Positions 2,215-55,862 of a stretch of DNA of 64,000 nt are shown here, piece after piece. The stretch's first letter is position 1; the number at the start of each line of letters is the position of its first letter. The stretch is from an uncultured Verrucomicrobiae bacterium (GTDB taxonomy: Bacteria; Verrucomicrobiota; Verrucomicrobiia; Opitutales; Opitutaceae): positions 1,169 through 65,168 of the forward strand of contig CAWDQK010000002.1 of assembly GCA_963804395.1 (NCBI GenBank). Direction: 5' to 3'. Made by a program: the position numbers and the translations under genes. Under the pieces are notes generated by a model that did no database searches, was not told where the DNA came from, and was given only the letters and a program-made list of their open reading frames with translations.

Positions 2215-3391
2215 ATGCGAACAGCAATCATACTCTGTCTTGCCCTGCTTACTTCGCCGGCCATTCTTCGTGCCGGGTCCGGTTTCGACACGATCGCCGT
2301 CGCGGAGCAGACGGTGCCGGGTGCCAGGATCAATTCTCCTGCGCCAGGGCATCCCGCTTACTATGTCGCCTATGATGGCGGCTATATCGAAGCCGGAGCG
2401 GTCATCGGGGGGCTGAAACCGCCGGCCGGCGCCGCGATCGGGCGGGCGCTGCGCTCCGCCCTTGGAGACGCCGGATATGAAGCGGCTTCGGCTCAAACCG
2501 TCCCCTCGCTGGTCCTGGTCTATCATTGGGGCTCCATTCGCCTCAACTACGGTGGCCAAACCGACTCCTTTCCCAATCTGGATGCCCGGCTGTCGTTGGT
2601 CGCGCCGGCGAGGATGGTCCGCCAGGCCGAGGAGTTCGTGCTGCACGGGCATGACGCAAATGTCGGCTACGTTGCAAGTGATCTGCAGTTCGACCCTGGA
2701 GTTCGCCCATGGTGCCCGTTACTTTGTGATCGTCTCGGCCTACGATTTTTCGGCTCTCACGCGGCACAACGTAATGCTGCTATGGCGCGTCAGGCTGAGC
2801 ACGCCGGAGAACAGCGGACCGATGGATGAGGCCCTGCTCGCGCTGGTCGGCAGTTGCAGTCCGTACTTGGGACGCAACTTCGACGACCGGCAGCGAATCT
2901 CAGCGTTGTTGCCCGCCCAGGATCTGGCGGGCCGGATCGGGGAGGGGGACGGGGCGGCGCTGCCGGTTCCGGACGCCACCGGACGGCTGGATGCGGGATT
3001 GATCAGCGACCTGATGCACCAGGAGCATGCGTTGTTCTCGGGCGAGCCATTTAGCGGGAACCTGGATTCCCATCCCCTCCTGCCGCCGGCGCTGGCCGAA
3101 CGCATTGCGGCCTACCGGCAGGAGAAGACCAAGTTGCAGGCGATCCTGGCGGAGAAGATCAAATCTCAGGCGCCCGGGGCGGACACCCGCCGCGCGATCG
3201 ACGCATTCAACTCCGAATACTCCGGGCGCATCCTGGCGCTCGGCCAGATGAGGGAACGCATCCGCAGCGCACTCGCGCAACTTCCGGCCGCGGAATCGCC
3301 GCCGGCCGAAGGACAGCCGCTCGACGCCTTGCTGCGCGAATTCGCGATCGATGTCCGGCATCTGGAACGCCCCCCGGCGGACACCCCCTGA
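2215..3391 (+). CDS. secreted hypothetical protein, paralog C; reading frame switches near nt 2690-2700
   Basis: Signal peptide MRTAIILCLALLTSPAILRA at 2215. Family motif SLVLVYHWG in frame 1, then ARYFVIVSAYDF..LLWRVRLS in frame 2 (ORF 2462-3391). Junction lies at gcagttcgaccctggagttcgccc. Confidence 0.5.
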
Positions 3392-3393
3392 CG

Positions 3394-4797
3394 ATGCCGG
3401 GCGGCGGACCGCCCGCCCGGATGTTTCGCCGCTCACTCCGCAACCGAATGCACCCACCAATCAAGCGCCCCGCGCTGCCGATGCTGCTCGCCGGCGCGCT
3501 CTTGGTGGGGATTTTTGCGGCGTTGGTGGTCGACTTTCGCGCCACGCTGCGGGAGCAGATCAGACAGACAATCATCAACCGCAATGCGGCCGTGCTCCGG
3601 CCGGTGGCCCTGCGGCAGTTGATGCAACGCGAGAACAGCCCCGGCGATCCGGCCAGCCTGCTCGCGGCCGTCCTGGAGAGCGTTCAGCAGGAGGACATGC
3701 TCGCCGTGGTGATTTTTGATGCGCAGGGCCGCACGCTACAGTTTGCTCCGCATTCGCTGCTTTTCGCCGAGCTGCCGCTGGATGATTACCTTCGGCTGCT
3801 CCAAGGCGATCCGATCAGCCGTTTTCATCCGGACTTCCCGCTCGATCGCTATTTTTCCGGCGTTGGCCCGTCGCCGACCGCCCGTTCAACGCCCGTGCTG
3901 GAAGTGCTGCTGCCGCTGCATGGCCGGGATGCCGACAGGAATCTGGGTTTTGCCCAGTATTACATCGACGGCCGTCCGCTGGCCGAGGAACTCTCAGCTA
4001 TCGACCGGCGCATCAACCGTCAGACAGCCGCCACTCTTTGCATCGGTGCCGCGCTGATCATTGCCGTCGTGACGGTCGCGTATTTCCGCCTGCGCCGGGC
4101 GCACGACCGGTTGGTGAAGGCCAATTTCGAACTCACCCTTTCCGCCAAGGCCTCCGCCCTCGGACAGATTTCCTCGCATTTGATTCACGGCTTGCAGGGC
4201 TCCGTCGCCGGTTTGCGGGCCGTCGTGGCTGGCCGCGACCCGGCGGTCGCAGATGCTGCCGACTGGGAGGCTGCCGCCGGATACACGGACCGGATGCAGG
4301 AGATGATTCATGAAGCCGTGGCCCTGTTGGGCGACTCCGCGTCAAGCGAGACGCACGAACTCACCGGGCAGGAGATCGCGAGCCTCATCCGTGAGCGCAG
4401 CGCGGCGGCGGCGGCGCAGAAGGGAGTCATCTTCACGGTTAACGGCCGTTTCGATTGCCCGCTCGACAGTCATCGCGGCGGGCTGCTTTCCCTTATCACC
4501 AGCAATCTTGTCCAGAACGCGATCGAAGCGACCGACGCGGGCCGGAATGTCGTCGTGAAGCTGTGCAGCGGAGATGACAGCGCGTCCATCATCGTTTCCG
4601 ACGAAGGCCACGGCATCGCCGAGGAATTGCGCGCCCATCTCTTCGAGCCCGGTCGAACCGGCCGCCCGGGCGGGTCAGGTTTGGGTCTGGCCATCAGCCG
4701 GTTGCTCGCGCGGCAGATTGGAGCGACCCTGACGCTCGAATCGACGGGAGCCGAGGGAACCACGTTTTGCGTGAAGTTGCCGCTGGTCTACACCTGA
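3394..4797 (+). CDS. sensor histidine kinase with periplasmic sensor domain
   Basis: TM1 LLAGALLVGIFAALVV, ~190-aa extracytoplasmic segment, TM2 LCIGAALIIAVVTVAYF, H-box ISSHLIHGLQGS, HATPase_c N-box NLVQNAIEA, G1 DEGHGI, G2 GSGLGLAIS. The true start may be an internal Met (3421 or later). Confidence 0.8.
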   Translation: MPGGGPPARMFRRSLRNRMHPPIKRPALPMLLAGALLVGIFAALVVDFRATLREQIRQTIINRNAAVLRPVALRQLMQRENSPGDPASLLAAVLESVQQEDMLAVVIFDAQGRTLQFAPHSLLFAELPLDDYLRLLQGDPISRFHPDFPLDRYFSGVGPSPTARSTPVLEVLLPLHGRDADRNLGFAQYYIDGRPLAEELSAIDRRINRQTAATLCIGAALIIAVVTVAYFRLRRAHDRLVKANFELTLSAKASALGQISSHLIHGLQGSVAGLRAVVAGRDPAVADAADWEAAAGYTDRMQEMIHEAVALLGDSASSETHELTGQEIASLIRERSAAAAAQKGVIFTVNGRFDCPLDSHRGGLLSLITSNLVQNAIEATDAGRNVVVKLCSGDDSASIIVSDEGHGIAEELRAHLFEPGRTGRPGGSGLGLAISRLLARQIGATLTLESTGAEGTTFCVKLPLVYT

Positions 4798-4831
4798 GGC
4801 AGGATGGTGCGGAGGAAGTTTGGCCGGGCAT

Positions 4832-4992: not shown

Positions 4993-5063
4993 AAGGGTGC
5001 GCCGGCAGCGCAGCGCCCGCCAGAACCCGAATTGCCGCGTGTTTCTCTCCGGGAAAGCCGGAA

Positions 5064-6670: not shown

Positions 6671-6676
6671 GACAAT

Positions 6677-10400: not shown

Positions 10401-11882
10401 TCATGGCTGGTTGGCTTCAGCGTGGGCGGGCACAGCGCTCCTGGCCAGGTTGTCCAGGAGTGAGAGTTTTTCTTTGGCGGACGGATCCGATGACTCCCAT
10501 AGGGCAAATTCGATCAACGTGCGGGCTCCAGAGACGTCTCCGGCACGCAGGTCCCATGAGACGCAATCGATGGCCAACTGCGAATTCCGCGGGAAGAATC
10601 GCGCGCCTTCGTTGAGGCACGCCCGTTCCGGCCCGGTCGGTCCGCGACCGAGGTGCTGCAACACCCTGGCCTCAAGCAGATAGGCGCCCTCGATGGGGGG
10701 CGGCTGCTTCAGCATGACCGAGAGCATTTCGAGGATGCCGGCGGCCTGTGCGTCGCTGAGGTTCCGGTTGAGGCCCGCGGGTTTTTCCAAAGCATCCTGC
10801 AACTGGAGCCGGGCGAGCGCCAGGCGGGCCATGGGTCGGGCGGCGACGGCTTCCGGGTGTTCCGCAAGGATTGTGCATCCGCCTGCCGGGTCGCCGGTTT
10901 CGATCCGAAACAACGCCAGAGAGGCAAGAAGCTGCGGATCGCGCTGACCCAGGTCGTAGGCGCGTTGCAGCAACTTGCGGGTCTTCTCGATGTAAAGGGG
11001 CAGGGCGCTGGGGTAGTTCTCCTTGATGACGCGCAGGGTTCGCCGGGCCCATTCGCCCTTGATCCGGCGAATCTCCTCGGGGTTTGCCTCCCGCCATGCA
11101 ATCGGTGGGGGCGTGGCGATGGGCACGTAGGGTACCTGCAAGGGTTTTAGCACGGCCTGTGGCAGGTAGTCGCTGAGGGCGTCGCGAGCGTCGGCATAAT
11201 TCATCCCGAAACAGGACTGGAACAGGCCTTCGGTGACCGGCTGGGCCGCCGCCGCCGAAGCGAAGCGTCGGAGACGGTCCTTGCCTCCTGTGACGTTTTC
11301 TGAATAAGCCCATCGCACGAAGAGCTCGGATTGTGCCTCCCAGACACGCCGGTATTTCTCCGACTTGCTCACGGGAATTGACGGGACGAACACCTCGCGC
11401 ATGGGCAACAGCGGCCGGGGCGCCCCGGCATCGGAGCGCAGGACCATGGCTGCGCTCTCCGACAGCCAGGGGTCCGGCTCAAATCCGTCGATCTTGTTCT
11501 CGTGGGAAGATTTCGAGGCCGTCGAGACTATTGCCTGAAACAGAACACCCGGTTGGAGCTCCGGAAAGAGGCTCGATTCGTAGAGGCCGGAAATGCCCAC
11601 GCTGTACCACGCCGGCAGGGCGGGCGCACGCGATTCGAGCAGGAAGCGAAGGTAGGTGGGTGAACAGACGATCGGAGGGCCTTGCCTTCCCATGGATCGA
11701 TTCGTTCTCCACTGATAGTCTCTCAGAATCGCAAAGGTGTAGGTGGAGTCGGGATCCGACAAACGAAGGTCGAACATAGGCTCGAACCGACTGCGCTCGC
11801 TGGACCTAGCTGGAATCTGATAAAGTTCCTGCGCCATTTCCTTGTCTATTTTGGCCGTTAGCGATCGGGGAAAAAGGATCAA
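10401..11882 (-). CDS. hypothetical protein, 493 aa, helical repeat-like C-terminus
   Basis: Long ORF on minus strand with no signal peptide and no recognised domain. Its stop overlaps the start of a 37-codon signal-peptide micro-ORF (ATGA at 10401-10404). Confidence 0.55.
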   Translation of the reverse strand: MILFPRSLTAKIDKEMAQELYQIPARSSERSRFEPMFDLRLSDPDSTYTFAILRDYQWRTNRSMGRQGPPIVCSPTYLRFLLESRAPALPAWYSVGISGLYESSLFPELQPGVLFQAIVSTASKSSHENKIDGFEPDPWLSESAAMVLRSDAGAPRPLLPMREVFVPSIPVSKSEKYRRVWEAQSELFVRWAYSENVTGGKDRLRRFASAAAAQPVTEGLFQSCFGMNYADARDALSDYLPQAVLKPLQVPYVPIATPPPIAWREANPEEIRRIKGEWARRTLRVIKENYPSALPLYIEKTRKLLQRAYDLGQRDPQLLASLALFRIETGDPAGGCTILAEHPEAVAARPMARLALARLQLQDALEKPAGLNRNLSDAQAAGILEMLSVMLKQPPPIEGAYLLEARVLQHLGRGPTGPERACLNEGARFFPRNSQLAIDCVSWDLRAGDVSGARTLIEFALWESSDPSAKEKLSLLDNLARSAVPAHAEANQP

Positions 11883-12180
11883 GGTCGAACGGGAGCGCCG
11901 TTTTGAACAGGAATTCTTCCGGGATCAGCTGGTGGAGATAGACGAGATCGGTGCGGAGATCCTGGATGAACGCCTGGGTTTCATCCTCCTCGCCGGCAGA
12001 AAGGATCTCCAGACCGGAGCATTCACCATGAAGCCAGTGCGGGCCATCCAGGGGTTCGGCTTCAACCAGGAATGGAGGCAGCGCCACGACGTTCTCGGTC
12101 CGGGATTCCCCCGATCCCAGGAGGGGGGAAGATCCGGCCGGAATGCCCAGAAGCATCAGCCAGATACAGAATCGCCTCAT
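11806..12180 (-). CDS. small secreted hypothetical protein, 124 aa
   Basis: Reverse complement of 12151-12180 reads MRRFCIWLMLLGIPAGSS, so the ORF is on the minus strand although the supplied track labels it +. Signal peptide present. ATGA overlap with the stop of 12177-13460. Overlaps the 10401-11882 start by 77 nt in another frame, so the two may be one frameshifted gene. Confidence 0.4.
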   Translation of the reverse strand: MRRFCIWLMLLGIPAGSSPLLGSGESRTENVVALPPFLVEAEPLDGPHWLHGECSGLEILSAGEEDETQAFIQDLRTDLVYLHQLIPEEFLFKTALPFDLDPFSPIANGQNRQGNGAGTLSDSS

Positions 12181-13460
12181 GGGATGGCCTGTCTTTGGCC
12201 GATTTCGTAAAGCAGGTCGTCCGCCCGGTCGAAGACGAAATACCGGGCCGGGCCTGCACCGCCGGACGCGAGGAGGAGAAACCGGTGCCCGGCGGCGTCC
12301 GCCCCGAGAATGATGATCTGTCGGTCCGGCAGTTTTTCCTCGGCGAGTGCCTGGATCTCTGCGAGCGGCGGTTCAGCAGCGGATGCGCGGGAATCTTGGG
12401 CCGACGCGAGTCCGGCAGCCTTCGCCTCGGGTTCCGCACGCTTCCCGGCCAGGTTGAAACAGATCGGTTCAGTCGCTGACTGGGGAATCAGGACATGTCT
12501 CGCATCAGCCCACCTCAAGGGCGCGAACCCTGCTTGGAGACTTGGGATCTTCGCGACAGCCGGTCGTGTCACCCCGTCGACATTCACGATTACCAGCTTC
12601 GAGATTTGATTCTCCTTCTTCACATAGGCGACATGAGCGCCGTCGGGCGCCAGGGCGGCATGGCCCGGCTCCGGCTCAGGTGTGACGCCCAGGGATTTGA
12701 GTTCACCAATCGCGACATGACCCTCGGGAACCGGCTTGTGGGTCAGCCCAGGGCTGTCTTGTCCGAAGAAGCGGGAGGCATTCCCAACCATGGTCGCCAA
12801 TTGCTTGTCGAACTCGTTTCCTTGTTCGCGAATGCTGAAGCGTGTCTGCCAGAGCAGCCTGCTCTCCCCCTGCTTCAGTTTCATCTGGAAGTCGTAGGCC
12901 AGGAGGACGACAAAATAGCGGCGACTTTGCAGTTCAGAGTCCGACAGCGAACCATAACCCAGGAGTTTCGCTGTTTGCTGGATTCTCTCGGTATCCTTTT
13001 GGACCTCATCGTTGGGCAGACGGCTGTTTTCGATAAGGTCCGGCGGACCCGCTTTCTCACCAGGCTCCGCAATGCTTAGTGAGGGGAACGGGTCATGATA
13101 GTCGGGTGCGAGCGTGATTCCCCAATAGACCACGATCAGGAGCTTGGTCGCGTTGTGATCGCGGGACGGAACATAGTTTTGGCGAGACAGCGCACCGGCG
13201 ATTTTTTGGGCGAGATCCACAAATGACAGCTTGTCGATGGTGGGGTCGGCAATGTCTCCGCCCAAAGATCCGCCTTTCAGGAGAGTATACGTTTCGGGTT
13301 GGAACGATCCGTCGGCGAGCTTGGTGCGGACGTAGCCGTTGCTCGTCTCCGAGAACACCGCCTCGAAGTCCTCCGCCAGCACCGGGCATTGCCAGCAAAG
13401 CGCCGCCCAAAATCCAACCAGCGCAAGCAACCAGCCGCGATTGGGAAGCCGCGTTCTCAT
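12177..13460 (-). CDS. secreted hypothetical protein, paralog B of the family at 1239-3391, with C-terminal beta-propeller-like extension
   Basis: 427 aa. Signal peptide MRTRLPNRGWLLALVGFWAALCWQCPVLA. Family motifs YVRTKLADGS, DPTIDKLSFVDLAQKIAGAL, YVPSRDHNATKLLIVVYWG, RYFVVLLAYDF..LLWQTRFSIR. Confidence 0.65.
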   Translation of the reverse strand: MRTRLPNRGWLLALVGFWAALCWQCPVLAEDFEAVFSETSNGYVRTKLADGSFQPETYTLLKGGSLGGDIADPTIDKLSFVDLAQKIAGALSRQNYVPSRDHNATKLLIVVYWGITLAPDYHDPFPSLSIAEPGEKAGPPDLIENSRLPNDEVQKDTERIQQTAKLLGYGSLSDSELQSRRYFVVLLAYDFQMKLKQGESRLLWQTRFSIREQGNEFDKQLATMVGNASRFFGQDSPGLTHKPVPEGHVAIGELKSLGVTPEPEPGHAALAPDGAHVAYVKKENQISKLVIVNVDGVTRPAVAKIPSLQAGFAPLRWADARHVLIPQSATEPICFNLAGKRAEPEAKAAGLASAQDSRASAAEPPLAEIQALAEEKLPDRQIIILGADAAGHRFLLLASGGAGPARYFVFDRADDLLYEIGQRQAIP

Positions 13461-21970: not shown

Positions 21971-24900
21971 ATGCTTTTCAGACAGCATCCGCCGTTGCCC
22001 GGCCGCGTGGCATGCGGGCGATGTCTTTCGCGGGCAGTCGCCTTGGCCGTGGTTGCGGTGGCGCTGGCGTTTATCGTCGGCAGTCTGCCTGCGCAGGAAT
22101 CGACTCCAGGAGTGACGCGTTTTGTGGCGCCGGGTGTGCTGACAAGCTTCGAGCAAATCTGGCAACTTTCCGATGCCGAGAAACGACAGTGGCACCGCGT
22201 GCGACTGGAATGCATCGTCTACTACTACGATTCCTCGTGGAATGCCTTGTGGGGCCGGTGCGGCGGGACAGACGGCTATCTGTCGCCCGGCCACCAGGTT
22301 TTTCCAATCGAGCCAGGACAGCTCGTCCTTCTCGAAGGCCTGATGCAGCCTTCAATGGGCATGACCGTCGAAGAACCCAAGATGACAGTGCTGGCTGCGT
22401 CCGTTCCGCTGGAGCCTCTCGGCACACAAGGGCACGTGGGCGAAACGGATCGCTTCAACAAACGCCTGGTCACTGTCGAAGGCAACGTGGACCGGCAAGT
22501 CAGTCGCGACGCCAATCATCAGGATATCGACCTCATGGCGGAAGGCCACATGATCAGTGTCCGGTTGCTGTTGAAAGGTGGCGAGCCCGTGCCGCAATGG
22601 CAGGGCTCGACGGTGCGCGCCAAAGGAGTTTACTTCCTGCGCGAGGCCCAGGACGGCAGCGCCCCGAGGATCGAACTCTGGGTGCAGCGGACGGAAGATG
22701 TGGAGGTTCTCACATCGTTGAGCCGGGACGCCCGGTTTACCATGCCGCCGACGCCGGTCGGAAAGATCGCGGGGCTGCCGGCCGGAACACTCGTGCGGGT
22801 GGTGGGCACGGTGACCGCGCAGGAGCCCGGCAAATCGCTGGAAGTTCGGGATGATACCGGCGCGGTCGAGGTGCGGACGCTTCAGGGGCGGCCCGTGCAG
22901 GTGGGCGAGGCGGTCGAGGCGATCGGCTATCCGGCCCGGGAGGGTGGCGCGCTGGTTCTGCAGCAGGGTATTTTTCGAACCGCCGAGTCAGTCGTCGCCA
23001 GTTTCTCCCAGTTCTGGCAGTTGCCCGAAGTGGAACGGCGCATTCGACACCAGGTGCGCATGGAGGTCCTGGTATATTATTACGATCCGGGGTGGCAGAA
23101 TGCGTGGGGGCGTTCGGGGGGAATCGACGATTACTTCTCGCTCGGAAACGCTGCCCTCGGCCTCCATCCGGGCCAGCGTGTCCTGGTGCAAGGTTCGGTG
23201 CTTTCGCCCGAGGGGCTCACGATTGACGATCCCAAGGTGACGGTGCTGGCGGAGGACGAGCCGATCGAGGTGTTGGCGACGAAGGGCCGGATTGGCGACA
23301 CCGAACATTTGAACAAACACATGGTCCAGGTCGAGGGCTACCTCGACCGGCAGGGACCACCGGATGAACGGCACGTCAAGCTTGACCTCGTCGTGGAAGG
23401 CCGTCCCGTGACCGGCCGCCTGTTGCTCAAGGAAGGAACGCAGGCGCCCGAAATGGAGGGATCGTTGGTGCGCCTCAAGGGAGTCTATAGCGCAACACCG
23501 AATCCCACCACGACGGTTCCGACCATCGAGATCTGGGTGCAGGGGCTGGAAAACCTGGAGCTGCTGGGGTTGGTTGGACAAAGACGAGCGGTTCAACCGG
23601 GCCGTCACCCCGATGGAACGGCTCTCGACGGTCCGGCCGGAATCGTTGGTGCGGGTGGCCGGAATCGTGCGCGCGCAAGAGGCGGGCCAATCAGTGACGC
23701 TCCGCGACGACACGGGGCAGGTGGTCGTGCAGACGGCCCAGACCGCTCCGCTGCAGATCGGGGAACCGATCGAGGCCATCGGACTGGCGATGCCCAAGGG
23801 CGCCGACTGGATCCTGCGGGAAGGCCTCTACCGCCGCAGCGCGACCGGCCCGCTGGCGCCCGCAGTCGGAGCATCGACGGTGCGGCTGGCCGAGCAGTTG
23901 TTGGAGCTCTCACCGGAGGAAGCCGCGCGGAGGCACCCGGTGCAGCTGGCGGGTGTGATCACCTGGGCCAATGAGAACGCGAGCTTCTTCTATTTGCAGG
24001 ACGGGAGCGGCGGTGCCTGCGTGACACGGCCCGCTGACCTGACCGGGCGGCTGCTGGTGGGTGCGCGCGCAGCCGTGAGCGGAGTTTCCACGGAGGGCCG
24101 GTTCACGCCGGAGGTGCTGGCGATTAACGTGCTGCCGTCTGCGGAGGTGGCGCTGCCCGAGGCAAAGGTCGTAACGCTCGAACAGGCACTCACCGGCATC
24201 GAGGAAGGGCGATGGGTGAGCATGACCGGCTATGTGCGCGAGGTGGCTCCCGAGGGCCCGTGGATGCGGCTCGGTTTGACAACGGCGGCCGGGGAGTTTG
24301 TCGCGCTGGTGCCACCGGACAGCAGTCTGCTGAAGCTGCAGGGGTCGGTCGTGCGGGCGCGCGGTGTCTGCAGCGCGGTGGCCAACAGCCGGCACGAGCT
24401 GGTCGGCATTCGGTTGTGGGTGCCGGGGACCTTGTATCTCGAAGTCCAGGAGGGCGTGCCGGGCGACTTGTTTGCAGTGCCAAAGCGCACGATTGCGAGT
24501 CTGCGGCAATTCAGCTCACAACAGGCGTTGAATCATCGGGTGTGCGTCTCGGGAACGGTTGTGCACCAGACGGTCGGCCGCCTGGTGCACATTCAGGAGG
24601 GCAACGAGGGCCTGCTGGTGCTGAGCCGCGACACGGTCACGCCGCTGGCGGCCGGCGATCGCATCGAGGCGGTTGGATTTCCCGGCATTGAGAACAATCG
24701 GCTGGTTTTGCGGGAGGCAATCTATCGGCGGACCGCCACCGGACCGGAACCGGCGCCGCTGCTGCTCGGTCCGCGCATCCCGGTCAACGCCGAAATCGAT
24801 GGGCGCCTGGTGCAGATGGAGGGAACTGTCCTCGATGTCGGAGCGCAGGAGGACCACGTGAGGCTGATTCTGCGGACGGACACGCTGATCCTGGAGGCGA

Positions 24901-26377: not shown

Positions 26378-26750
26378 CCGGAGGCGGCTGCCCTGAGACT
26401 GATCCCGCGGGCCTTCGCCCGCCACCGGGCATCGCTGACAGCGGCGGCAAAGCGAGGATCGTTGGCATCCACGCAACCCAGTTGAGCCAGATGTATCTCG
26501 GGGCTGTTGATGACCGGTGGCTCGCTGACCTCGTCTGTGTCCGGCTGGGGTTCCGGAAGCCGGCTGAGCGACTCACCGGTCGCCATACGTCGGGGCGATA
26601 AGAGGAAATTCCCGGACCCTGTGCGAGCCAATTGCGGTTGAAGCGGATCGGCCTTGAACTGCAGATGACGCCAGTGACAAAATTTGGAACAACCTCCCTC
26701 CGCATCAGGGAAGGCGAAAGTCCTCCAGCCGCCAGGGACTGCCGGGCGTT

Positions 26751-27116
26751 TTATGCAGCGGCCGGGATGACCGAGAGCCCGGGGTTGAGCACTTCTGATC
26801 CGAGATGTGCGATGGTGCCATCCTCGATCAGGACCGTCATGTGGAGCGTGATGGCGCCCGGTCGGCCGTCGAAGAGGAATGGCCCGTTGTATTCTCCGAT
26901 TTCGACTACTCTGATGTGGTTAGGGTCGGTCCATTGTGCCAGATCGACAAGACCGCCGGCCTGGGGCTTGTCCGGGTGTGTGGTCCTGGCAGTTTCCGCG
27001 TCTGGCGCGGCCATGATGGCGGAGAGAATCCTGGCCTGGGATCCGTCCTTGTGAAACTGCCTGACGAATCGGGCGAGGTGTTCGACTTTGGTATTGATGA
27101 GGAGAAAGAGTTTCAT
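26751..27116 (-). CDS. hypothetical protein, 121 aa
   Basis: Compact ORF with no recognised domain. Confidence 0.35.
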   Translation of the reverse strand: MKLFLLINTKVEHLARFVRQFHKDGSQARILSAIMAAPDAETARTTHPDKPQAGGLVDLAQWTDPNHIRVVEIGEYNGPFLFDGRPGAITLHMTVLIEDGTIAHLGSEVLNPGLSVIPAAA

Positions 27117-36565: not shown

Positions 36566-36949
36566 TTAGGCCGCCGCGCCAGCCATGGCCACCGGAGCCT
36601 TCTTGGGGATCGTGATGGCGAGTGCCCCGTCACGCAACGAAGCCTCAAGTCCGTCGAAATTGAGCCGGTGGCCAAGCCGCAGCCGCAGTTGGTAATCGTG
36701 CTGCACCGGTTCAAGGTGCAGCGCGCGCCAGTTGGGGCGTACCAGATGACTCTTCTTTGCGGTCACAATCAGATCGGGCCCCTCGACCGTGATCTCAACA
36801 CTGCTGGCGTCAACTCCGGGGACGTAAAGCACGAGGTTTAGCGCATCCATGTGCTCCTGGCAGTCATAATGCGGCCGGCGGAACGCGTCCTTGCGGGCGA
36901 AGGCCGGGGAGGGCTTTTTTGATCTGAGGGAACGGATGATTTGGTTCAT
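36566..36949 (-). CDS. Hsp20/alpha-crystallin family small heat-shock protein (paralog)
   Basis: 127 aa. Alpha-crystallin domain ending GALAITIPKK. Paralogous to 35798-36196 (DYQLRLRLGxxL shared). Confidence 0.75.
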   Translation of the reverse strand: MNQIIRSLRSKKPSPAFARKDAFRRPHYDCQEHMDALNLVLYVPGVDASSVEITVEGPDLIVTAKKSHLVRPNWRALHLEPVQHDYQLRLRLGHRLNFDGLEASLRDGALAITIPKKAPVAMAGAAA

Positions 36950-37504
36950 GTGGATGTGCTCCTTTCGTCGGTCTTCACCGCCGGATCTCCTGGAAAACGA
37001 ACGACCGGAAAACGGTTTCGTTCAGGCCAGGCAGCCGGCGTCGGTGAATTTGCTCCAGCGAGCGACGACCGGATGCATCTGGCCGCGACAAGACTGCTGG
37101 GCCGCCTTCGTAAGCGAAGTGCGGGCCGTGCGGCTGATGAACTGTGGAATCCGGGTCATTGGACTGAAGCGCTGTCAACATGCATAAAGCAGATCGCGCG
37201 CCAAGGACTATTTTTACTGTAACCTGATTTTTGCATTCCCGCTGTGCCGGTGGATGTAGCGTGCGTGGCTGGATTCTGGCCAGGGCTTGCTTTTCGAGCC
37301 GCCTGGCATCGCGAGGCACGCCGCACGGGCATCCGATCCAACTTGGTGTCAAGCTGTCGGCCTGCGGCCACGGTGGCTTTGTCGTCCCGCAAGGCGAAAC
37401 TCCGCACAATGACGGATTGATGCCAGAAGCTCTGGCCAGATTCCAGTCACGCATCCAGGCTGGCCACGGCACGGATGGGTGGTAGGTTTCCAATCTATCC
37501 AACC

Positions 37505-43060: not shown

Positions 43061-43372
43061 GGCTGTCAGCGGCATCCAAGAAAATGCGACGGGAGGAACC
43101 GTTTTGCAGGACGCGCCTCGGGAGCCCGCATATCCGGCGATTCCAGCCGGCACCGCGGATGTCGCGATGGAAGAACGAAGCGGCGGTGGGAACCGCGCGG
43201 TATGCGGGCTAGGGGGAATTGCCCAGTGCTCCTAGGGTCCTGGCTCCGCGGAACCGGGAAGCCGGGACCGGAGTCCTGGGATAAGCCGGTCGCGGAACTA
43301 GGGCACCAGGATTGGGCAGTTTGAGGGCGAGCCCGAATACCCGGATTTCACTCTGGCGGTTACGCTGCTGGC

Positions 43373-43879
43373 GTGAAAATCAACGCCACAGTCCGCCAGA
43401 TCCTCCCGGTGAGCGCGCTCGTGCTCGCGCTGTTCGGGGCGGTGACGGCCCGTGCTGCAGAGCAACTGGTGGCGGGAATGACCTACGATGCGGCGGTCTC
43501 TGACGCGCTGGCGGTGGTTGGCCACCGGCCTGAAATGAGTGTCGTGCGCATCGCAGGTCATTCGATGGAACCCTATTTCAGTGATGATGCAGTGATCGTG
43601 GTGAAGAAGATCGACGCCGCCCGTCTGCGAATCGGGATGATTGCGGTGTACGTGAATCGGTTTGGGGAGAAGGTGGCCCACCGGGTCATCGCTCCAGTTG
43701 CCGGCGGCTGGCAGGTCAAGGGGTATAGCAATGATCGGCCTGACAGCACGGTGGTGGACGCCGGCAATCTGCTGGGGATCGTTTACGCGACGTTCAGTCC
43801 TGCTGGTCGAGCCCCGGTTGCGGTGGCGGCGTCGATCCTTCCCGCGATTGAGACCGTCTACGCCGCGCCCGCCAAATAG
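43373..43879 (+). CDS. secreted S26/S24-family peptidase-like protein (signal peptidase I / TraF-like)
   Basis: Signal peptide, then GHSMEPYF matching the GDSMxP serine-protease box (Asp replaced by His), and AHRV..G..VKGD-like C-terminal region. Confidence 0.5.
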   Translation: MKINATVRQILPVSALVLALFGAVTARAAEQLVAGMTYDAAVSDALAVVGHRPEMSVVRIAGHSMEPYFSDDAVIVVKKIDAARLRIGMIAVYVNRFGEKVAHRVIAPVAGGWQVKGYSNDRPDSTVVDAGNLLGIVYATFSPAGRAPVAVAASILPAIETVYAAPAK

Positions 43880-44147
43880 CCAGCGAGGCGCAGCCTCAGA
43901 CCAGACTTGGGCCTTGATGCGGTCGGAAGACCGGATGCTGCCGGAGGCCGGAGCCAGCGCCTCGCTGAATGTCCGCGGCGCGGACAAAACGATCGAGGGG
44001 ATCGACCCGCGAAGCAGCGAAAGCGTCACCGAAGAAAACTTGACCTGATCGCAGCACGTATCGCGGCTCAAGGACTCTCGATTCCGGCCTGCGCCGGAAT
44101 CTGCAGGCTTTCCAAGCAAGGCGCTGCTGGTATGGTTCGGCGCACCA

Positions 44148-44605: not shown

Positions 44606-44680
44606 GCCCTCATCGTCTAGCGGCTAGGACAAGAGATTCTCAATCTTTAAACCGGGGTTCGATTCCCCGTGGGGGCGCCA
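44606..44680 (+). tRNA. tRNA-Glu (anticodon CUC)
   Basis: Cloverleaf folded by hand. Acceptor GCCCTCA/TGGGGGC with one GU pair, D-arm GTCT-AGCGGCTA-GGAC, anticodon loop TTCTCAA (C34 T35 C36), 4-nt variable loop, T-arm CGGGG-TTCGATT-CCCCG, discriminator G, encoded CCA. D-arm TCGTCTAG.GGC.TAGGACA matches bacterial tRNA-Glu. Confidence 0.8.
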
Positions 44681-44924
44681 ATTTTAGAGGTAGAACGAAA
44701 GTAAGTGACGAAAAACGGACAAACTCCCGTCCTCTGGGAAACGAAAACCCCAACCGGATCATGCCGGTGCCCCCCGGCCGCTTCTGCCCATCCCATCGCT
44801 CCCGCCGGCCTGAGATAGTTCATCCTGGGCAACCTGTGCGCCCTGGTTTCCGTTTCCGCGGTCTGAACACGCTTGATCTCTCTGAGCGAAAAGCATTCAC
44901 GCTCAATCAACCATTCGTTAACCG

Positions 44925-45776
44925 ATGCCCTTGCTATACCGCTATTTTCGCACGGGTTACCTGGAAACTCTTGATAATTGCGAGCTTAGGGTTGCGAGGA
45001 TTCGGGATCTCAATGATCCGTTCGAATGCAAAATTGCAATTGTCGGTGAGATGACGCCTGAAAATGCAAAGGCCCTTTTGACCGAGCGGAAAGACAGGGG
45101 GACTCTCCTTCATGGAATTCAGCAGAAATACCCTAATCTAAGGACGAGACGGGCGCTTGAACGCCACTTCACCCAACACAGCGAAGAATATGCACAAAAT
45201 CTCATTTTGGCTGAGCCAAGACTCAAAGAGAGAATCGAGAGAGTCAATTCGGACGTACTCGAAAAGGACATAAGGGTTGTGTGCTTCTCGGCTAACCAGA
45301 AGGACGATAGAAACACTGTCCTGTTGTGGTCTCACTACGCGAACGAGCACAAAGGCGTCCGGATCGGCTTTGATGTGCCTTCCGATGTTATGACACAATG
45401 CTTCCGCAAGATCGAATATTCAGACAACCGCGTTTTCCTCAATTTGACAGAGAACGCGGAATCGGAAGCAGGAAAAGAACAAATTGCGAGGTCACTGCGG
45501 ACCAAGAGCAGTTCGTGGGCATATGAAGAAGAAATTCGAATGCTTGTACATCCCGGCGAATGTTACGGTAAAACGGTCGTGGGTAAATCGATGGAATTTG
45601 TGAAGCTACCAAGATCTTGGGTTCGATTTGTGGATTTCGGGGTAAATGCGCCTGAATGTGACATCTCCAAGGTTCGCGAAATGGTGAAAGCACGCGGATA
45701 TGAGGCCGTGCTTAGGCAAGCGAAGACACATGCTACGAAGTTTTGCCTACTGTTTAATCCGATTTCTGGCGGGTAA
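44925..45776 (+). CDS. DUF2971-like protein in a low-GC islet
   Basis: 283 aa. N-terminal LYRYF..NDPFE and W(S)HYANEHKGVRIGF segments fit my recollection of the DUF2971 signature. Local GC ~45% against ~65% background, immediately 3' of tRNA-Glu. Confidence 0.6.
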   Translation: MPLLYRYFRTGYLETLDNCELRVARIRDLNDPFECKIAIVGEMTPENAKALLTERKDRGTLLHGIQQKYPNLRTRRALERHFTQHSEEYAQNLILAEPRLKERIERVNSDVLEKDIRVVCFSANQKDDRNTVLLWSHYANEHKGVRIGFDVPSDVMTQCFRKIEYSDNRVFLNLTENAESEAGKEQIARSLRTKSSSWAYEEEIRMLVHPGECYGKTVVGKSMEFVKLPRSWVRFVDFGVNAPECDISKVREMVKARGYEAVLRQAKTHATKFCLLFNPISGG

Positions 45777-46147
45777 CATCGGCGTTCTCTATTCGTGACA
45801 TCTGAAGGCACTTCAAACAAAAAGCCCGGCGCGCGGTGAAGCGGGCCAGGCTTGGAGGTCCGGAAACTCCGAATCTCAGCGCCGCGCCGGCCGTCTGCTC
45901 ACAGGCCGATTTAAGGGGGTCGGGCTTTGGGGTTTGGGGTTGGCAATTCAAGTGATGCGTCCAGTTGGAGCCGGCCCAAGGCCGAGCCTAAAGGGTCAGG
46001 ATCGACGGATCGCCCTGCTGATTCCCTTTTCGGCAGAACCGCGGGTTTCGCGGTGGAAATCTGGTTGCATCAGCGGAGTGAAGGCGGACGATCCCAGGCT
46101 TAGGTACGCCGGTGGAACCGGCCAATCGGAGTGCGAAAGGAGCAGTC

Positions 46148-48707
46148 ATGAACCGACGTGAGTTTGTGAAGGTGTCGGCAGCGGCGGCGGCCACGCTGCC
46201 GGCGGCGGGAATGGTGGCCAGGACGCGAGACCCCGGCGGGGAAGCCGCCAGCCGGGCGGCCGGCAGCGGGAATCCGGTTCGTTGCTTCAACGGGGTCTAT
46301 GAAGGGCCGAACTTGAGCCGGGTGGCGTTTCCCTTGGGCGGCATCGGCGCGGGCATGGTCTGCCTCGAGGGCGCCGGAGGCTTGTCCCATTGCTCGCTGT
46401 GGAACCACCCGGATGTGTTCAACGGCGCAGGGCTGTTTGCCGCCATCACGGTCAAAGGCACCGGAGGCGTTGCGCGCGTGCTGGAGGGACCGGTGCCGGG
46501 CTGGAAACTTTTCGGCCGGCCGGGGAACGCGGCGGGCGGGGCCGAGCCAGGTCTGGGCTTGCCCCGTTTCCGGGGCGCGTCATTCCGGGCCAGTTTCCCG
46601 TTTGGCGAAGTGACTCTGGCCGACGATGCGGTGCCGCTGGCCGTGAGGATTACCGGGTGGAGTCCGTTCGAACCGGGCGACGCCGACAATGCGAGCCTGC
46701 CGGTGGCGGCGCTGGAGTACGCCTTCACCAACCGCGGCACCGAGCCGGTCGACGCGGTGTTTTCGTTCCATGCGAAGCACTTTGTGGCGACGGAGAAGAG
46801 GCCAAATGAGATCAGGCCGGCGCCCGGTGGATTCATGCTGCACGGCGCCGGGACGCCGGACCGGCCGTGGGACGAGGCGGCCCTTCAGGTTTCCGTTGAA
46901 CGATCCCACGGTGAAGGTGAACCATGCCTGGTTCCGCGGCGGTTGGTGGGACTGGCTGGCGATGGTGTGGCGCGATATCGCCGCTGGCGCCGCTTACGAT
47001 CGTCCTCCGGTCAACGGGGGGCTGCCTGCGCCGGGCGCCTCGCTGTTTGTTCCGTTTCAACTCGGGCCGGGCGTGACCCGGGTGATCGCGGTCCGCCTGG
47101 CCTGGTATGCGGGGCAGACCAATTTGCGGGTGGGCAAGGACCTGCCCGGAACCGCCGGAGGGCCGAAAGAGACCTACCGGCCGTGGTATGCCGGACGGTT
47201 CAAGGACGTCGCGGAACTCGCGGCGTATTGGAATGAGCACTACGATGGGTTGAGGGCGGCGGCCGGGCGTTTTACCCGGTGCTTCCATGACTCGACGCTG
47301 CCGCCGGAGGTGATCGAGGCGGTGGCCGCCAATCTCGCGATCCTCAAGTCGCCGACCATCCTCCGTCAGACCGACGGGCGGCTCTGGGGTTGGGAAGGCT
47401 GCGCCGACCAGGAGGGCCAGGGGGCGCTGTGCAGCCACGTCTGGAATTACGCGCAGGCCATGCCGCATCTGTTTCCGGCACTTGAGCGCACGCTGCGGGA
47501 GACCGAGTTCGGGCCTTCCCAGGACGACCGGGGGGAGCAGACCTTTCGCAGCGGCCTGCCAATCCGGCCGATTGTCCACGAGGAGTACGACGCCGCCGAC
47601 GGCCAGCTGGGCGGCATCATGAAGGTCCACCGCGACTGGCGCATCAGCGGCGATCTCGGGTGGCTGCGAGCGAATCTGGCCAAGGTTCGCGTCAGCCTCG
47701 ACTACTGCATCGAGACCTGGGACCCGAGGCACTCGGGCTGCCCGGAGGAGCCCCAGCACAACACCTACGACATCGAGTTCTGGGGAGCCAACGGAATGTG
47801 CGCCAGCATCTATCTCGGAGCCTTGCAGGCCGCCGTCCTGATGGGCCGGGCCCTGGGCGAAAGAGTCGATGACTACGCCGCCCTCCTGGAAAAAGGAACC
47901 CGACGCGCGAACGAGGAGCTGTTCGATGGCGAGTATTTCTTCCAGCGAGTCGAGTGGGAAAACCTTCGCGCCAAGCTGCCGAAGGATCCCAAGAACTGGG
48001 TTGGCGAGAGCTTCTCATCCGAAGCAATGGCCCTCATCGAGAAGGAGGGACCGAATTATCAATACGGCACCGGCTGCCTCTCTGACGGGGTCATCGGATC
48101 CTGGTTCGCGCTGGTGTGCGGGGTCGGTCAGGTGCTGGACTCCGGCAAGGTGAAGAGTCATCTCAACGCCGTCCACCGGAACAACCTGAAGCACGACCTC
48201 TCGGCACACGCGAATCCCGACCGGCCCACCTACGCCTGCGGCTCCGAGGGCGGCCTGTTGCTTTGCACCTGGCCCAAGGGAGGCCGCGCCTCCCTGCCGT
48301 TCGTGTATTCCGACGAGGTGTGGACCGGCATTGAGTATCAAGTCGCCTCCCACCTGATGTTGATGGGATTTGCGAGCGAAGGGCTCGAGATCGTCCGGAC
48401 CTGTCGCAACCGGTATGACGGACGCGTCCGCAATCCCTTCGACGAATATGAATGGGGCCACTGGTATGCCCGGGCGATGGCCTCGTATGCGTTGTTGCAA
48501 GGGCTCAGCGGCGCCCGCTACGACGCGGTCGACAAGGTGCTGTATCTGCAGCCATCGATCGTTGGCGACTTCCGCTGTTTTCTTTCCACGGCGACCGGCT
48601 ATGGCACCGTGGGCGTCAAGGATGGGAAACCCTTCTGCGAGACTGTCCACGGCACAATCGAGGTCCGGGAGATCCGCTATTCGCCGGCGACGAAGGAGCG
48701 GGGATAG
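46148..48707 (+). CDS. glycoside hydrolase family 116-like beta-glucosidase (GBA2-type), Tat-secreted; one frame switch near 46885-46900
   Basis: Twin-arginine signal MNRREFVKVSAAAAATLPAAG. GH116 N-domain FPLGGIGAGMVCLEG, C-terminal catalytic region. Frames 2 and 3 join at DEAA/FRFPLNDPTVKVNH when one c is removed from ccc. Confidence 0.8.
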
Positions 48708-50374: not shown

Positions 50375-50380
50375 GCCGGA

Positions 50381-51049: not shown

Positions 51050-51475
51050 CTAATCATCGTTGCTTTCGGTCTGGCCCTCCGCGCGGGGGGAAAAACTGAG
51101 CAGGTGCGCCACGAGGAAACACCCGAGCGAGCCGCCCACGGAGAGCACGACAACCGTGCGGGCCAGCTTTCGCCCCTGCCACAGACCGACGAACCATTCC
51201 CTGAACTCCGACGCCACAGCGTTGGATTTTCCCCCAATGCGTTCCATGGCATAGTCGTAACGCTTGGAATCGCCGAGAATGTCCGAATCCGAACTTCCGG
51301 CATCAGACACAGCCCAGCGGCTGATCATGACCGCAGCCAGCAAGCCGCCAACCAGGATGATGACTCCCGCAAGTCGGAATCGCTTTTGGAGGATCCGGTC
51401 TCTCACCGATCGGTCCGGGGTTTCGTCCGCGCTCATGACAGCATTCTGTTTGTCGTCTGCGACACGGGATCGCAC
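51050..51475 (-). CDS. hypothetical membrane protein
   Basis: Two predicted TM helices (LAGVIILVGGLLAAVMI, TVVVLSVGGSLGCFLVAHLL). The start may be an internal Met. Confidence 0.4.
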   Translation of the reverse strand: MRSRVADDKQNAVMSADETPDRSVRDRILQKRFRLAGVIILVGGLLAAVMISRWAVSDAGSSDSDILGDSKRYDYAMERIGGKSNAVASEFREWFVGLWQGRKLARTVVVLSVGGSLGCFLVAHLLSFSPRAEGQTESNDD

Positions 51476-51591
51476 GTCAAAACTGAAGGATGGGCTGATC
51501 GTCCGCGGCCGGCTACAGCTGCAGGATCAGCGCTGACGGCGCCGTCGAGTGGCTCACACCGCGGCCACACTTTTGTTGGAAACCGCTCCAG

Positions 51592-53836
51592 CTAATTTGC
51601 GACGGCCCCCAGGGTCTTGTCGGAAGCTTCCGCGGAGTATTTCTGGAAAAGGCGGCGGGAAACCGCGATCGTGTCGCCTGTCGGCGCCGCCGGATAGGTT
51701 TCGTGCTGTCGTGTCCAGGCCAGGTCATTTTCGCGGATTTTCGCCCGCGTTGCCTCCACGTCGAGTGCGTTGCCACTCGCGAGTGCAGACTGCAGGGCGC
51801 CGAGCCAGAGTTGCCAGCGTTGATAGTAGAATGTGCCGACCAAACCCGACCATTGCCGGTTGGCGTAGTCGGTGATTGCATCGTCCCGATTCCAGGTGGT
51901 CACGAGCTCACGTGCGTTTCGTTCACACAGGTCCTGCTCGTCTGTGGTCGTGCCGTAGGCGCGGGCGTCGGCCAGCCAGACTCCGAGGAGAAACTCCCGG
52001 CGGGTGGCGAGCAGTTCGTCGAGATCGTGAAACAGTCCGAGCAGGCGCCCGCTCAACTCGCGCACCGCGGTGGCGTCCTTGCGGGCATACGCCTGGACAA
52101 TTGCCTTGTGATAGCGTCCGGCGAGATCGGCCAGCACCTGCCGGCTCACATCGGCCAGATCGTAACGGTAGCCGTCGCTTTCGCCGCAGGCACCCGCGGC
52201 CTCGAGCATCAGCCGCCAGGCGTTGACCAGGCGCGTCGTGTCATAGCGCGGCTCCGTCGAGCCCCAGAGTCGGGCCTTGGGGTAGGGTTCGAGGGACGGG
52301 CGCGCGCAGACCACCGAATTCAAGGGATAGTCGACCACCGCGGAACCCCAGACGGTCTCGCACAAAATCTGCAAGGCGCGCTGCGGCGCCGGCGAATCGC
52401 TGCCATAGCGCCGGCGGGCGTAGTCGCGCAACCAGCCGGCGGCATCGGGCGCCTCGCTGCGCCAGGCGTTGCCAAAGAACATATCCCAGAGCAGCGGCTG
52501 CGTCTCGCTGCCTTCCATCAGCGCTCCAATGCCGCGCATTTGACCCTTGCCCGGTCCCGCTTCGGCGAGAGCCCGGACCGGTGCCTCACGCAGGGACTCC
52601 AGCCGTCCCGACAGGCCGACGTTGCCCCCGAAATTGTGAATCGTGCACCACAGCCACGGCGTATGGCCGAATTGCCCGCGCTCGCGCCAGTTCTCCTTGC
52701 TCTCGCAGAAGAGATCGAGCACCAGGAGCCTTGATTTGTCCAAGGCGTTCGACCATCGGCTGCCGCGGATTGTCCTGCCACGACTGCAGCACCCAGGTCA
52801 CATCGGGACGCGCCCGCACCATGGCCGCAAAGATCGCCTGGCCGCAGGCCGCAAGATCGATGCCTTGCGTGGTTCCGCCTTCGTGGAAGGGATCGGCGGC
52901 CAGGAATCTCGCGCCGCCGAGAAGACTGGTCTGCGCGTCATAGACCGCCGCGGCCACCTTCGCAAACAGCGGATCGAGCGGATCGAGCATGTCCGGCCGC
53001 TTGGAGCCGGCCCAGTCGCCCTGCGGATGGATCTTCGCATCCGGGAACCGCTTCTTGAAATCGGATGGCACGATGCCGTAGTAGCCCTGCAACACCGGGT
53101 CCATGCCCAGTTCGCGCATCCGGGTGACGATTTCGCGGCCGAGGGCGAGCCGCTTCCCCACGACCGCCGGCGGCACGGGTCCGCCGTAGTCCTCGATGTT
53201 CGACATGTATTGCCACGGCTGGTGCGATGGCATGCACAGCCAGCGCCTCACTTCGGAATCGGAATAGCCGAACTGCTGGAGTGCATTGATCCAGACCTGC
53301 TCCTGTCCCTCGATGATGAGGGCAAGATTGACACCCTTAAGTGCGAGGAAATCGAGTTCCCGCTCCCACCGCGTCCAATTCCACCAAGCCATCGTGTAGC
53401 CGTGGGTGCAGTAGTTGTAAGCGTACCGATACCGATGCGGGCTCACGACGCGAATCTTCCCCGGCACCGGCGGCAGCGATTCTGGCAACGCCAGCTGGTT
53501 GCCGCAGTTCCAGGAGATCTCGCAGCGGCCGAATTCCTCCAGGTAACGATTCAGGGCCGACGCGATGGAGACGCCGTTATTGCCGCGCAGAACGATCTTC
53601 CCGCCGCGACTCTCGACCTCGAAAACATCCTGTCCCTCGGCTGGCGGAATCACCTCCACGGCGAAATCGGAAGCGTGCGCGGGAACGAGGCGTTTGATCA
53701 GGCCGGTCGCGGCCCGGCTTGTGGCGGCTGAATCGGGTGCCGGCGGGCGCCCGGCCGGCTCGGCCAAGGCGATCGACTGGCAGGCGAGGAGAATCGTCCA
53801 AAGAAGCAGCCTAGGAATGAAGTTCGTTTTGTTCAT
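51592..53836 (-). CDS. alpha-N-acetylglucosaminidase (GH89, NAGLU-like), secreted; one frame switch near 52740
   Basis: Start at MNKTNFIPRLLLWTILLACQSIALA. GH89 TIM-barrel region ALKGVNLALIIEGQEQVWINALQQFGYSD..WQYMSNIEDYGGP, C-terminal helical domain in ORF 51592-52743. Upstream part of ORF 52586-54784 belongs to the MFS insertion. Confidence 0.8.
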
Positions 53837-54045
53837 CTGGGATGGGTCCGATTCCACGGACGCGTACTTCGGCTTGGTCAGAGTGTAGGAGCCTGCTTGC
53901 GGGCGATTCAATGGATGTCCCGTTTTCGTGAGTTTGAATCGCCGGCAAACAGGCTCCGACAAAAGAGAGAAGAAAGGTGGAAGCGGTGACTTGGCGTTGG
54001 TTTGACCACGTGCCCCGGAGCTCTCTCCGGAGACCTTTTTCGAAT

Positions 54046-55862
54046 TCAGATCTTGGCCGTCCCTTTTTCGAAATGCTCCTCGATCTCCTCGAGCGTCTTG
54101 CCCTTGGTCTCCGGCAGGAAGAAGGCGGCGGTGATGAAGTAGATCACAGTGCAGCCGGCGAATGCGAAGAACATGGTTGAGTAGCCGTACTTGCCGACGG
54201 TCGGCAGAAAGATGGCCGCGATGGTCGTGGAGACGGCCTGGTTGACGAGCAGGGCGATGCTCATGCCGTTGGAGCGGATGCGCGTCGGCATCAACTCGGA
54301 GAGCGCCAGCCAGACGCAGACGCCGGGGCCAACGGCGAAGAACGCCATGAAGCTGAACAGGAAAGCGGCGGTCAGCCACCGCTGGCGGGTGCCCGGCACG
54401 CGGCGTGATCAGCGCGTGTTCGATCCGCAGGGGCGCCAGGCGAGCCTGGTCCAGGCTGGCCAGCGGATTCGAAAAGAACGCTTCAACCTTTGTGGACGGC
54501 ACGCAACCGTCGCGTGTCACTTCGATTGGCGCGGCCAGCGGGTCGTCGGAACGCGCAGCCTTCGTGGCGGCGCGGTAGTCGCCGCAGGCATAGATGACGA
54601 CGAGAGTCGCCGGCTTCCCCGTGAGCCCCGCACCGGAGTCGTTGGTGGTGGCGAGCAGTCGATCCGCGGCCGCCTGATCGAACCTGAGCGCGAGCTTCTG
54701 GTCAGCTGCGACCATGGCTTGAACGGCGGCGCGAGCGTCCACGCGGAGCCGCTCCGTTCTGGCGGAAAAGCAGACCGACCACAATCAAGGAGACGATGAT
54801 GCCTGCGCTCCCGATCGAGAGCAGAAACTTGCGGCCCCGGCGGTCGACGAGCACGACGCCGCCGATCGTGCAGAGAAAATTGACGAGCGTCAGGATGACA
54901 TAGCCCCAGTGCGCCTGGACGTCGGACAGGCCGCTCTGGAGCAGAATCGTGGCGTTGTATCCGATAATCGAGTTGACCCCGGTCGCCTGGTTGCAGGCCA
55001 GAATGACGCAGGCGAGGATGAACGGCACCACGTATTTGCGCCGCAGCAGCGATTCCCGGATCGTTCCGCCGGCCGTGGAGGTCCCGGCTTTCCCGGGAGC
55101 GTTGGCCTCCTCCATTTCACGCAGCTCGATTTCGGCCTGGGCGGCGGTGCGGGAGCGAAGCAGGGCGGCGCGGGCTGCCTCCTTCCGGCCGCGGAGGAAC
55201 AGCCAGCGCGGCGACTCCTCCACCAGCAAGCTGCCGATCACAAACAGGAGGCCGGGTGGCAGCGACACCCAGAAGATGCTGCGCCAGGCCGCGTCCTTGA
55301 ACGCGCGAAGCTTCTCCGCATCGCCGAGCTTGGTTACGTCTCCGACCCGGATACTGAAATACATGCCGATCAGCGCCGCCGCCACGATTCCGAGCGTCAG
55401 CAGCCATTGGAAAACGCCGGTGCCTTTGCCCCGGTTCGCCGCGTCGAGGCATTCGGCGAGGTACAGCGGCACGACGACACCGATCAAGCCGGCGCTGATG
55501 CCCTGCAACAGGCGGCCGAGAACCAGCGGTTCATAGCCGTGCGCGAGGGCGATGATCGGAATGCTCGCAACGAAGAGAACGCCGCTCAGAACCATGAGGG
55601 GTTTCCGGCCCATCCAGTCGGCGAGCAGGCCGGCGAACAGCGTCGAGATCACGCTGCCCAGCAGCACGGCGGCGACGATGAACGATAGTTGCCCGGCAGT
55701 CAGGTCGGACGTGGCCTCCAGATAGGGGAGGGCGCCGGCGATGATTCCGACATCCACGCCGTACAGCAGACCGCCCAGGCCGGCGACCAGCAGAAGGAAG
55801 CGGTTATAGCCGGTCTTTGCGGCTTCAGGGGCCATTTCGTCTTTCGCAGGGGGATGGTTCAT
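54046..55862 (-). CDS. MFS sugar-porter family transporter, interrupted by a ~330-bp insertion between TM9 and TM10 (nt ~54405-54740)
   Basis: N-part ORF 54702-55862 (TM1-9, GRK, PESPRWL, R-K loop motifs). C-part from 54399 down (TM10-12, PGVCVWLALSELMPTRIRSN, PETKGKTLEEIE). The two parts are in different frames and separated by ~300 nt where ~15 codons are expected. Confidence 0.7.

Follow-up and report, generated by a model that had tools for sequence, protein, structure and literature searches.

Results

Eight genes of the window are interrupted by frame switches

The DNA stretch analyzed here, in the following the window, comprises 64 kb with about 63% G+C from an Opitutaceae (Verrucomicrobiota) genome, i.e., positions 1,169 to 65,168 of contig CAWDQK010000002.1. 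Eight of its about 50 genes do not remain in one reading frame. These are the genes for two secreted proteins without a Pfam family, here called paralog C and gene B, a hybrid sensor histidine kinase/response regulator, the succinyl-CoA synthetase alpha subunit (sucD), a flotillin/SPFH protein, two glycoside hydrolases of families GH116 and GH89, and a sugar porter of the major facilitator superfamily (MFS) (Table 1). In total, we found 11 one-base frame switches, ten insertions and one deletion, each backed by orthologues or by split Pfam domains.

We located the frame switches with a Viterbi segmentation based on codon usage, with states for the six frames and for non-coding DNA, which was trained on long intact genes and made no use of an earlier list. 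Same-strand switches without an intergenic gap appeared at about 2692, 11845, 23564, 25763, 28225, 27928, 32525, 46887, 52727, 54753, and 54404. Pfam scans were run on the stop-to-stop fragments and again on the repaired open reading frames (ORFs). A first-pass annotation of the window had reported frameshifts in paralog C and in the kinase, sucD, flotillin, GH116, GH89, and MFS genes, and the segmentation recovered all of them independently, with split Pfam domains or homologues in support. A further region named there as possibly affected, 11806–11882, also contained a real frameshift, namely that of gene B; its true site is 11884–11890, and orthologues of 593–602 aa span the candidate. The earlier list thus had the genes right, but several positions and bases were off by 5–25 nt: sites given at 28245 in sucD and 32515 in the flotillin gene move to 28219 and 32527, respectively, and the extra C assigned to a CCC run at 46890 in GH116 is more likely an extra base in the heptamer GTTGAAC.

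Exact-sequence look-ups found window proteins, including frameshifted fragments, deposited in NCBI/ENA on one 94,905-bp contig of a metagenome-assembled genome (MAG) (P0121, P0124, P0415, P0416). Three of these, P0121, P0415, and P0416, are broken fragments deposited as such; P0121 is the 170-aa N-terminal fragment of SucD. The frameshifts were therefore already in the public assembly before the window was prepared.

Table 1. Frameshifted genes of the window and GTCGAC sites that differ in a second assembly. Extra bases are given in square brackets.
Feature	Position	Strand	Change
Paralog C, secreted, no Pfam family	2215–3391	+	Insertion 2688–2694, GT[T]CGAC
Gene B, secreted protein of 592 aa, no Pfam family	10401–12180	-	Insertion 11884–11890, plus strand GTCGA[A]C, coding strand GT[T]CGAC
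Hybrid sensor histidine kinase/response regulator, 1,468 aa repaired	21971–26377	+	Frameshifts 23566–23580 and 25764–25766
sucD, succinyl-CoA synthetase alpha subunit, 307 aa repaired	27564–28489	-	Insertions ~28219 (coding GTCG[G]AT) and ~27933 (coding ACC[A]TGC)
Flotillin/SPFH protein, 508 aa repaired	31448–32975	-	Insertion 32526–32527, coding AGAC[C]GCTCGAG
GH116 glycoside hydrolase, 852 aa repaired	46148–48707	+	Insertion within 46881–46901, most likely GTTGA[A]C 46895–46901
GH89 alpha-N-acetylglucosaminidase, 747 aa repaired	51592–53836	-	Insertion 52747–52753, plus strand GT[T]CGAC
MFS sugar porter, 604 aa repaired	54046–55862	-	Insertions 54757–54758 (coding CAGA[A]CG) and within 54402–54406 (ATC[A]CGCC)
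GTCGAC to GTTGAC in contig L162	30070–30075		C>T at 30072
GTCGAC to GTTGAC in contig L162	31010–31015		C>T at 31012
GTCGAC to GTCAAC in contig L161	46748–46753		G>A at 46751, mirror image of both L162 changes

One-base edits restore full-length and evenly conserved proteins

One-base edits produced full-length ORFs without internal stops in all eight genes, and after repair the Pfam matches were continuous and higher scoring. The repaired lengths agreed with those of the families, i.e., 307 aa for SucD, 1,468 aa for the kinase (family 1,420–1,496), 604 aa for the MFS porter (605), and 592 aa for gene B (593–602). Identity to orthologues was determined by segment along the gene and amounted to 93, 96, and 91% for SucD, 54, 65, and 69% for the kinase, 62 and 71% for gene B, and 67, 46, and 59% for the MFS porter, whose middle segment corresponds to a variable loop. 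Conservation downstream of the slips was not lower than upstream, and we saw neither relaxed constraint nor additional lesions. No frameshift was shared by orthologues among 14 sucD DNA sequences, the best 120 SucD proteins, 33 kinases, three gene B proteins, the MFS orthologue P0267, and the flotillin relatives; for GH116, GH89, and paralog C, absence of the frameshift was judged from Pfam continuity together with distant homologues or paralogues.

A MAFFT alignment of sucD with the DNA of 14 relatives contained exactly two columns filled by the window only, and these are the two insertion sites. CoA_binding and Ligase_CoA fall in different frames; after repair they cover positions 3–97 of 97 and 1–118 of 128, respectively. 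Repaired SucD aligns over its full length (100%) with many 307-aa SucD proteins at 90–94% identity, and the best 120 relatives are nearly all 307 aa long and 84–94% identical. Between sucC and sucD lies a 122-aa ORF of unknown function (28641–29009, minus strand), which blastn shows to be conserved at this place in the relatives L047, L063, L003, L050, and L076. The flotillin gene, compared with the DNA of three relatives, has one extra base at about 32527, and its Band_7 domain, split into 2–93 and 93–175, runs from 2 to 175 (of 176) once repaired.

In the kinase gene, HATPase_c is divided between frames (5–55 and 56–110). One deletion and one insertion yield the 1,468-aa ORF, for which about 33 orthologues of 1,420–1,496 aa show 52–62% identity over 96–99% of the length; none of the 33, Opitutus terrae P0160 included, has a gap at either junction. 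The first frameshift can be read as an extra G in GGGG (23566–23569) or as GTTG[G]AC within GTTGGAC at 23573–23579. The second is the sole deletion among the 11 sites, with CCC where the orthologues need CCCC. This kinase of about 1,450 aa is conserved across Opitutaceae, O. terrae among them. Its N-terminal sensor region of about 1,000 aa (21971–24900) consists of repeated units with weak hits resembling the oligonucleotide/oligosaccharide-binding fold (Rep_fac-A_3), and one relative is annotated as 'BOF family'.

The MFS gene has its Sugar_tr domain split into 3–335 and 351–452. Residues 13–368, 371–486, and 487–604 of the orthologue P0267 (605 aa) match three successive frames, and this gene hence carries two frameshifts. 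A loop of about 115 aa (54405–54756, minus strand) is inserted between Sugar_tr positions ~341 and ~351; it is common to relatives of 550–650 aa (e.g., P0267, and in part P0266).

For GH116, the domain GH116N was found as 1–152 and 218–310 and extended over 1–310 (of 312) after repair. Plasmid-borne GH116 homologues of about 30% identity align in one piece and fit both possible repairs, and a PDB search gave no alignment across the junction. The NAGLU domain of GH89, split into 1–224 and 241–335, covered 1–335 (of 336) with 381 bits once repaired, and the repaired junction ATG GTC GAC GCC reads QPMVDALDKSRLLVLDLF.

Orthologues of gene B (P0260–P0262, 593–602 aa, 65–70% identity) run through the junction with the reading TALPTTLILFPRSL, which puts the superfluous base within CCG T TCG ACC. 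Repair results in CCG TCG ACC, where the orthologues have P-T-T. Removal of one T from paralog C gave a 391-aa ORF reading ...DLQSTLEFAHGARYFVIVSAYDF, with CAG TCG ACC at the repaired motif, in agreement with its paralogues and with P0263 and P0264. The window encodes three such secreted paralogues without a Pfam family (1239–2174, 2215–3391, and 12177–13460), which share the motif RYFV(V/I)(V/L)xAYDF...LLW; P0263 (886 aa) and P0264 (773 aa) are distant relatives of this group, in which the module is present one to three times.

Frameshift sites are enriched in one-insertion derivatives of GTCGAC

The first-pass annotation had described the frameshifts as lying often in homopolymer runs. We found only one or two of the 11 sites in runs of at least three bases, i.e., the second kinase site (25764–25766) and possibly the first one (GGGG). 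Most of the other sites are duplications of one neighbouring base. The inserted base differs from both neighbours at 27933 in sucD (A between C and T) and, under one reading, at about 54406 in the MFS gene.

A different pattern emerged at the junctions of paralog C, gene B, and GH89, where exactly GTTCGAC or its complement GTCGAAC was found. Two more sites are one-insertion derivatives of a miscalled GTTGAC, namely GTTGAAC in GH116 and GTTGGAC at the first kinase site. In total, corrupted GTCGAC motifs (GTTCGAC, GTCGAAC, GTTGAAC) contain four to five of the 11 sites, and homopolymer slippage explains at most two. In permutations, a strict one-insertion derivative of GTCGAC was present at three of 11 sites compared with a random mean of 0.22 (p about 0.001), and a derivative of GTCGAC, GTTGAC, or GTCAAC at five of 11 sites compared with a random mean of 0.44, a value that no draw out of 20,000 reached; these p-values are optimistic, since we narrowed the site intervals with the motif already in view. 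The window contains 16 intact GTCGAC sites, and about one motif site in five is corrupted.

Two further short sequences recur or stand out at the sites. CAGACG is present in the repaired flotillin site (32520–32532) and in the first MFS site (54752–54762), and the second sucD site is located inside CACCTGC, an AarI/BspMI-type site. Either may be a further modified motif or a coincidence, the cases being too few to tell.

A second assembly disagrees with the window solely at GTCGAC

Look-ups with intact window proteins led to the Logan assembly of run ERR11571142, which holds the same organism as the window. Three of its contigs were obtained, L161 (window 44651–46896), L162 (29938–31628), and L163 (32593–33722), while look-ups with sucC (two starts), 28641–29009, 12177–13460, 1239–2174, and 51050–51475 returned no contigs. 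Over 5,067 bp, the three contigs showed three mismatches to the window, exactly at the three GTCGAC sites that they cover (Table 1). L161 and L162 contain 23 further TCGA sites, all of them unchanged. The end of L161, at 46896, falls within the altered heptamer of GH116, and L163 ends 66 bp short of the flotillin site.

In Nanopore data, strand-biased G>A and A>G errors are reported to concentrate at bacterial methylation motifs, sometimes in more than 50% of reads (bioRxiv 10.64898/2026.01.14.699587). From the mirror-image disagreement restricted to GTCGAC we infer that the reads are Nanopore reads and that the organism modifies this motif. This pattern suggests a putative SalI-type (GTCGAC) methyltransferase or restriction-modification system.

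Among related genomes, the best of the matches listed for SucC in a scan of genome contigs was a Microflora Danica MAG (L001, 93% amino acid identity), and a peat-bog MAG (L038) is syntenic with the window from 27.5 to 41.4 kb. Among the matches listed, neither the SucC scan nor a metagenome scan with the middle fragment of the kinase contained a contig of the same species; the relatives listed from the latter scan, which was swamped by the generic kinase motif IAHDFNNM, reached at most 51% identity.

Discussion

We propose, with a probability of roughly 90%, that faulty consensus calling produced the 11 frameshifts, four to five of them at GTCGAC, in a MAG of an Opitutaceae bacterium assembled from long reads, almost certainly those of Oxford Nanopore. 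The real genes in the cell are almost certainly intact, i.e., the frameshifts are an artefact and not a biological feature. As the likely course of events, the organism would methylate GTCGAC, a SalI-type motif, and Nanopore base callers would misread the methylated motif in a strand-specific manner, as GTCAAC on one strand, which is seen as GTTGAC from the other. Polishing could then keep the miscalled together with the correct base, so that a heptamer with one extra base (GTTCGAC, GTCGAAC, or GTTGAAC) would break the frame. The remaining six to seven sites would be ordinary low-coverage indel errors, mostly single-base duplications and one shortened CCCC. Of the cause given in the first-pass annotation, indel errors in the assembly of a long-read or low-coverage MAG are hence retained, but homopolymer slippage is replaced at most sites, with the corrupted hexamer taking its place at four to five of them.

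This explanation is strongly supported, not proven, and several points weigh against it. The motif explains none of the other six to seven sites, and 13 other GTTCGAC or GTCGAAC heptamers in the window are genuine in-frame sequence without a frameshift. Assignment of the first kinase site to the motif appears ambiguous, and the GWL of the orthologues favours GGGG over the motif. The permutation values are, as mentioned, optimistic. Asn, the residue of the Logan variant at the GTCGAC site of sucC, is also the natural one in 13 of 82 relatives, and either assembly may be correct there. Run ERR11571142 was assigned to Nanopore from its error pattern, the accession not being found in the literature. 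Moreover, an intact copy from the same organism was not sighted: the Logan contigs cross none of the 11 sites, and repaired SucD (two variants), flotillin, paralog C (four), gene B (two), and the MFS porter had no verbatim copy in a collection of 15 billion proteins.

A decaying genome in which eight genes were very recently inactivated by one-base indels would account for frameshifts that are already in the deposited assembly and that affect eight of about 50 genes. None of the eight genes, however, has a second type of lesion, be it a stop codon or a larger deletion, and conservation downstream equals that upstream. sucD, the kinase, and the MFS gene would each have been struck twice and are otherwise undamaged, gene density nearby is ordinary, and the housekeeping genes sucC and ndk are intact. 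Natural bacterial indel spectra lean to deletions, opposite to the insertion excess of 10:1 found here, and the sites are enriched at the very motif that also shows miscalls between assemblies. We consider such pseudogenization very unlikely, as the first-pass annotation had already argued, and the absence of the frameshifts from all orthologues agrees with this. The motif enrichment itself would be matched if the insertions were real in the DNA and GTCGAC were a +1 hot spot, through a resident SalI-type restriction-modification system and perhaps nicking followed by error-prone repair; very recent mutations that inactivate genes would then be building up at the restriction sites of the sampled population, which we find scarcely credible.

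Each broken gene can be read right across its switch, as is the case in recoded genes, and programmed ribosomal frameshifting or transcriptional slippage might thus restore the proteins in vivo. The orthologues, however, are all single-frame, ten of the sites would require shifts of +1, which bacteria make only very rarely, and inspection of the eleven contexts by eye showed neither a shared slippery heptamer (X XXY YYZ) nor a prfB-like Shine-Dalgarno-plus-stop arrangement. Transcriptional slippage would need a run of at least eight A or T; no site has one, nor any run longer than the GGGG of the kinase. The chance that recoding is at work is practically negligible. Sequencing errors without involvement of methylation, i.e., from 454/Ion Torrent flow chemistry, homopolymers in PacBio continuous long reads, or chimeric co-assembly of strains, would have the same outcome of reversible one-base indels; errors of PacBio continuous long reads are rich in insertions, and the sites without the motif would fit as well. 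Flow chemistry is at odds with the scarcity of runs of at least three bases. Mirror-image miscalls at a motif are not expected from PacBio or Illumina, and the G>A and C>T disagreement at all three covered GTCGAC sites is typical of Nanopore at modified bases. Together with the enrichment of frameshifts at GTCGAC derivatives, this makes these error types highly improbable as the sole source.

The consensus errors proposed here resemble modification-mediated Nanopore errors at Dam, Dcm, and other restriction-modification motifs in that they are tied to a short palindromic motif, show strand-specific G>A changes (C>T from the other strand), and let assemblies disagree solely at the motif. The literature consulted, in contrast, stresses substitutions, whereas here one base is inserted inside the motif, and methylation and platform are deduced. 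As in other low-coverage, long-read-only MAGs, where one-base indels lower the coding density, genes are split into adjacent ORFs in different frames, but homopolymers of at least three bases play only a minor part. The nearest relative listed, L001, comes from a project with MAGs of this kind. Bacterial pseudogenes in decaying genomes, e.g., those of Mycobacterium leprae or Sodalis, likewise adjoin intact genes. They differ in their relaxed constraint, their deletions and stop codons, and the several lesions that each gene has gathered; we saw none of these traits here.

The biological meaning of the frameshifts is nil, given genes that are intact in the cell; they matter to users of this MAG and of similar ones built from long reads alone. 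For roughly every sixth gene of the window, the annotation wrongly gives two or three fragments in place of one protein, and sucD of the tricarboxylic acid cycle, three carbohydrate-utilization genes, and the gene for a large sensor kinase are among them. Such errors would distort coding density, pseudogene counts, pangenome statistics, and estimates of pathway completeness. Frameshifts clustering in one-insertion derivatives of a palindromic hexamer can serve as a diagnostic of methylation-induced consensus errors, which are removable by methylation-aware base calling or polishing and would not be fixed by homopolymer correction.

Further features of the window

Additional candidates for broken genes at 26373–27564 and 43368–44103 and a GTTCGAC at 27080 were discarded, as they showed single-frame read-through or no recognizable family. 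A twelfth frameshift candidate at about 37163, from tblastn with ORFs of the peat-bog MAG, proved to be one gap in a non-coding stretch of 86% identity upstream of the HSP20 gene (36566–36949). This stretch of about 260 nt (36994–37250, minus strand) has a counterpart of 86% identity at the corresponding place in the peat-bog MAG, is apparently non-coding, and contains a TTGACA-like box. It matched no Rfam family at the gathering score; a role as RNA thermometer or as conserved heat-shock leader is possible. A tRNA-Glu(CTC) gene at 44606–44680 is followed by a stretch of low G+C (55% compared with about 63%) with a DUF2971 protein (44925–45776), which may be a small island inserted at tRNA-Glu.

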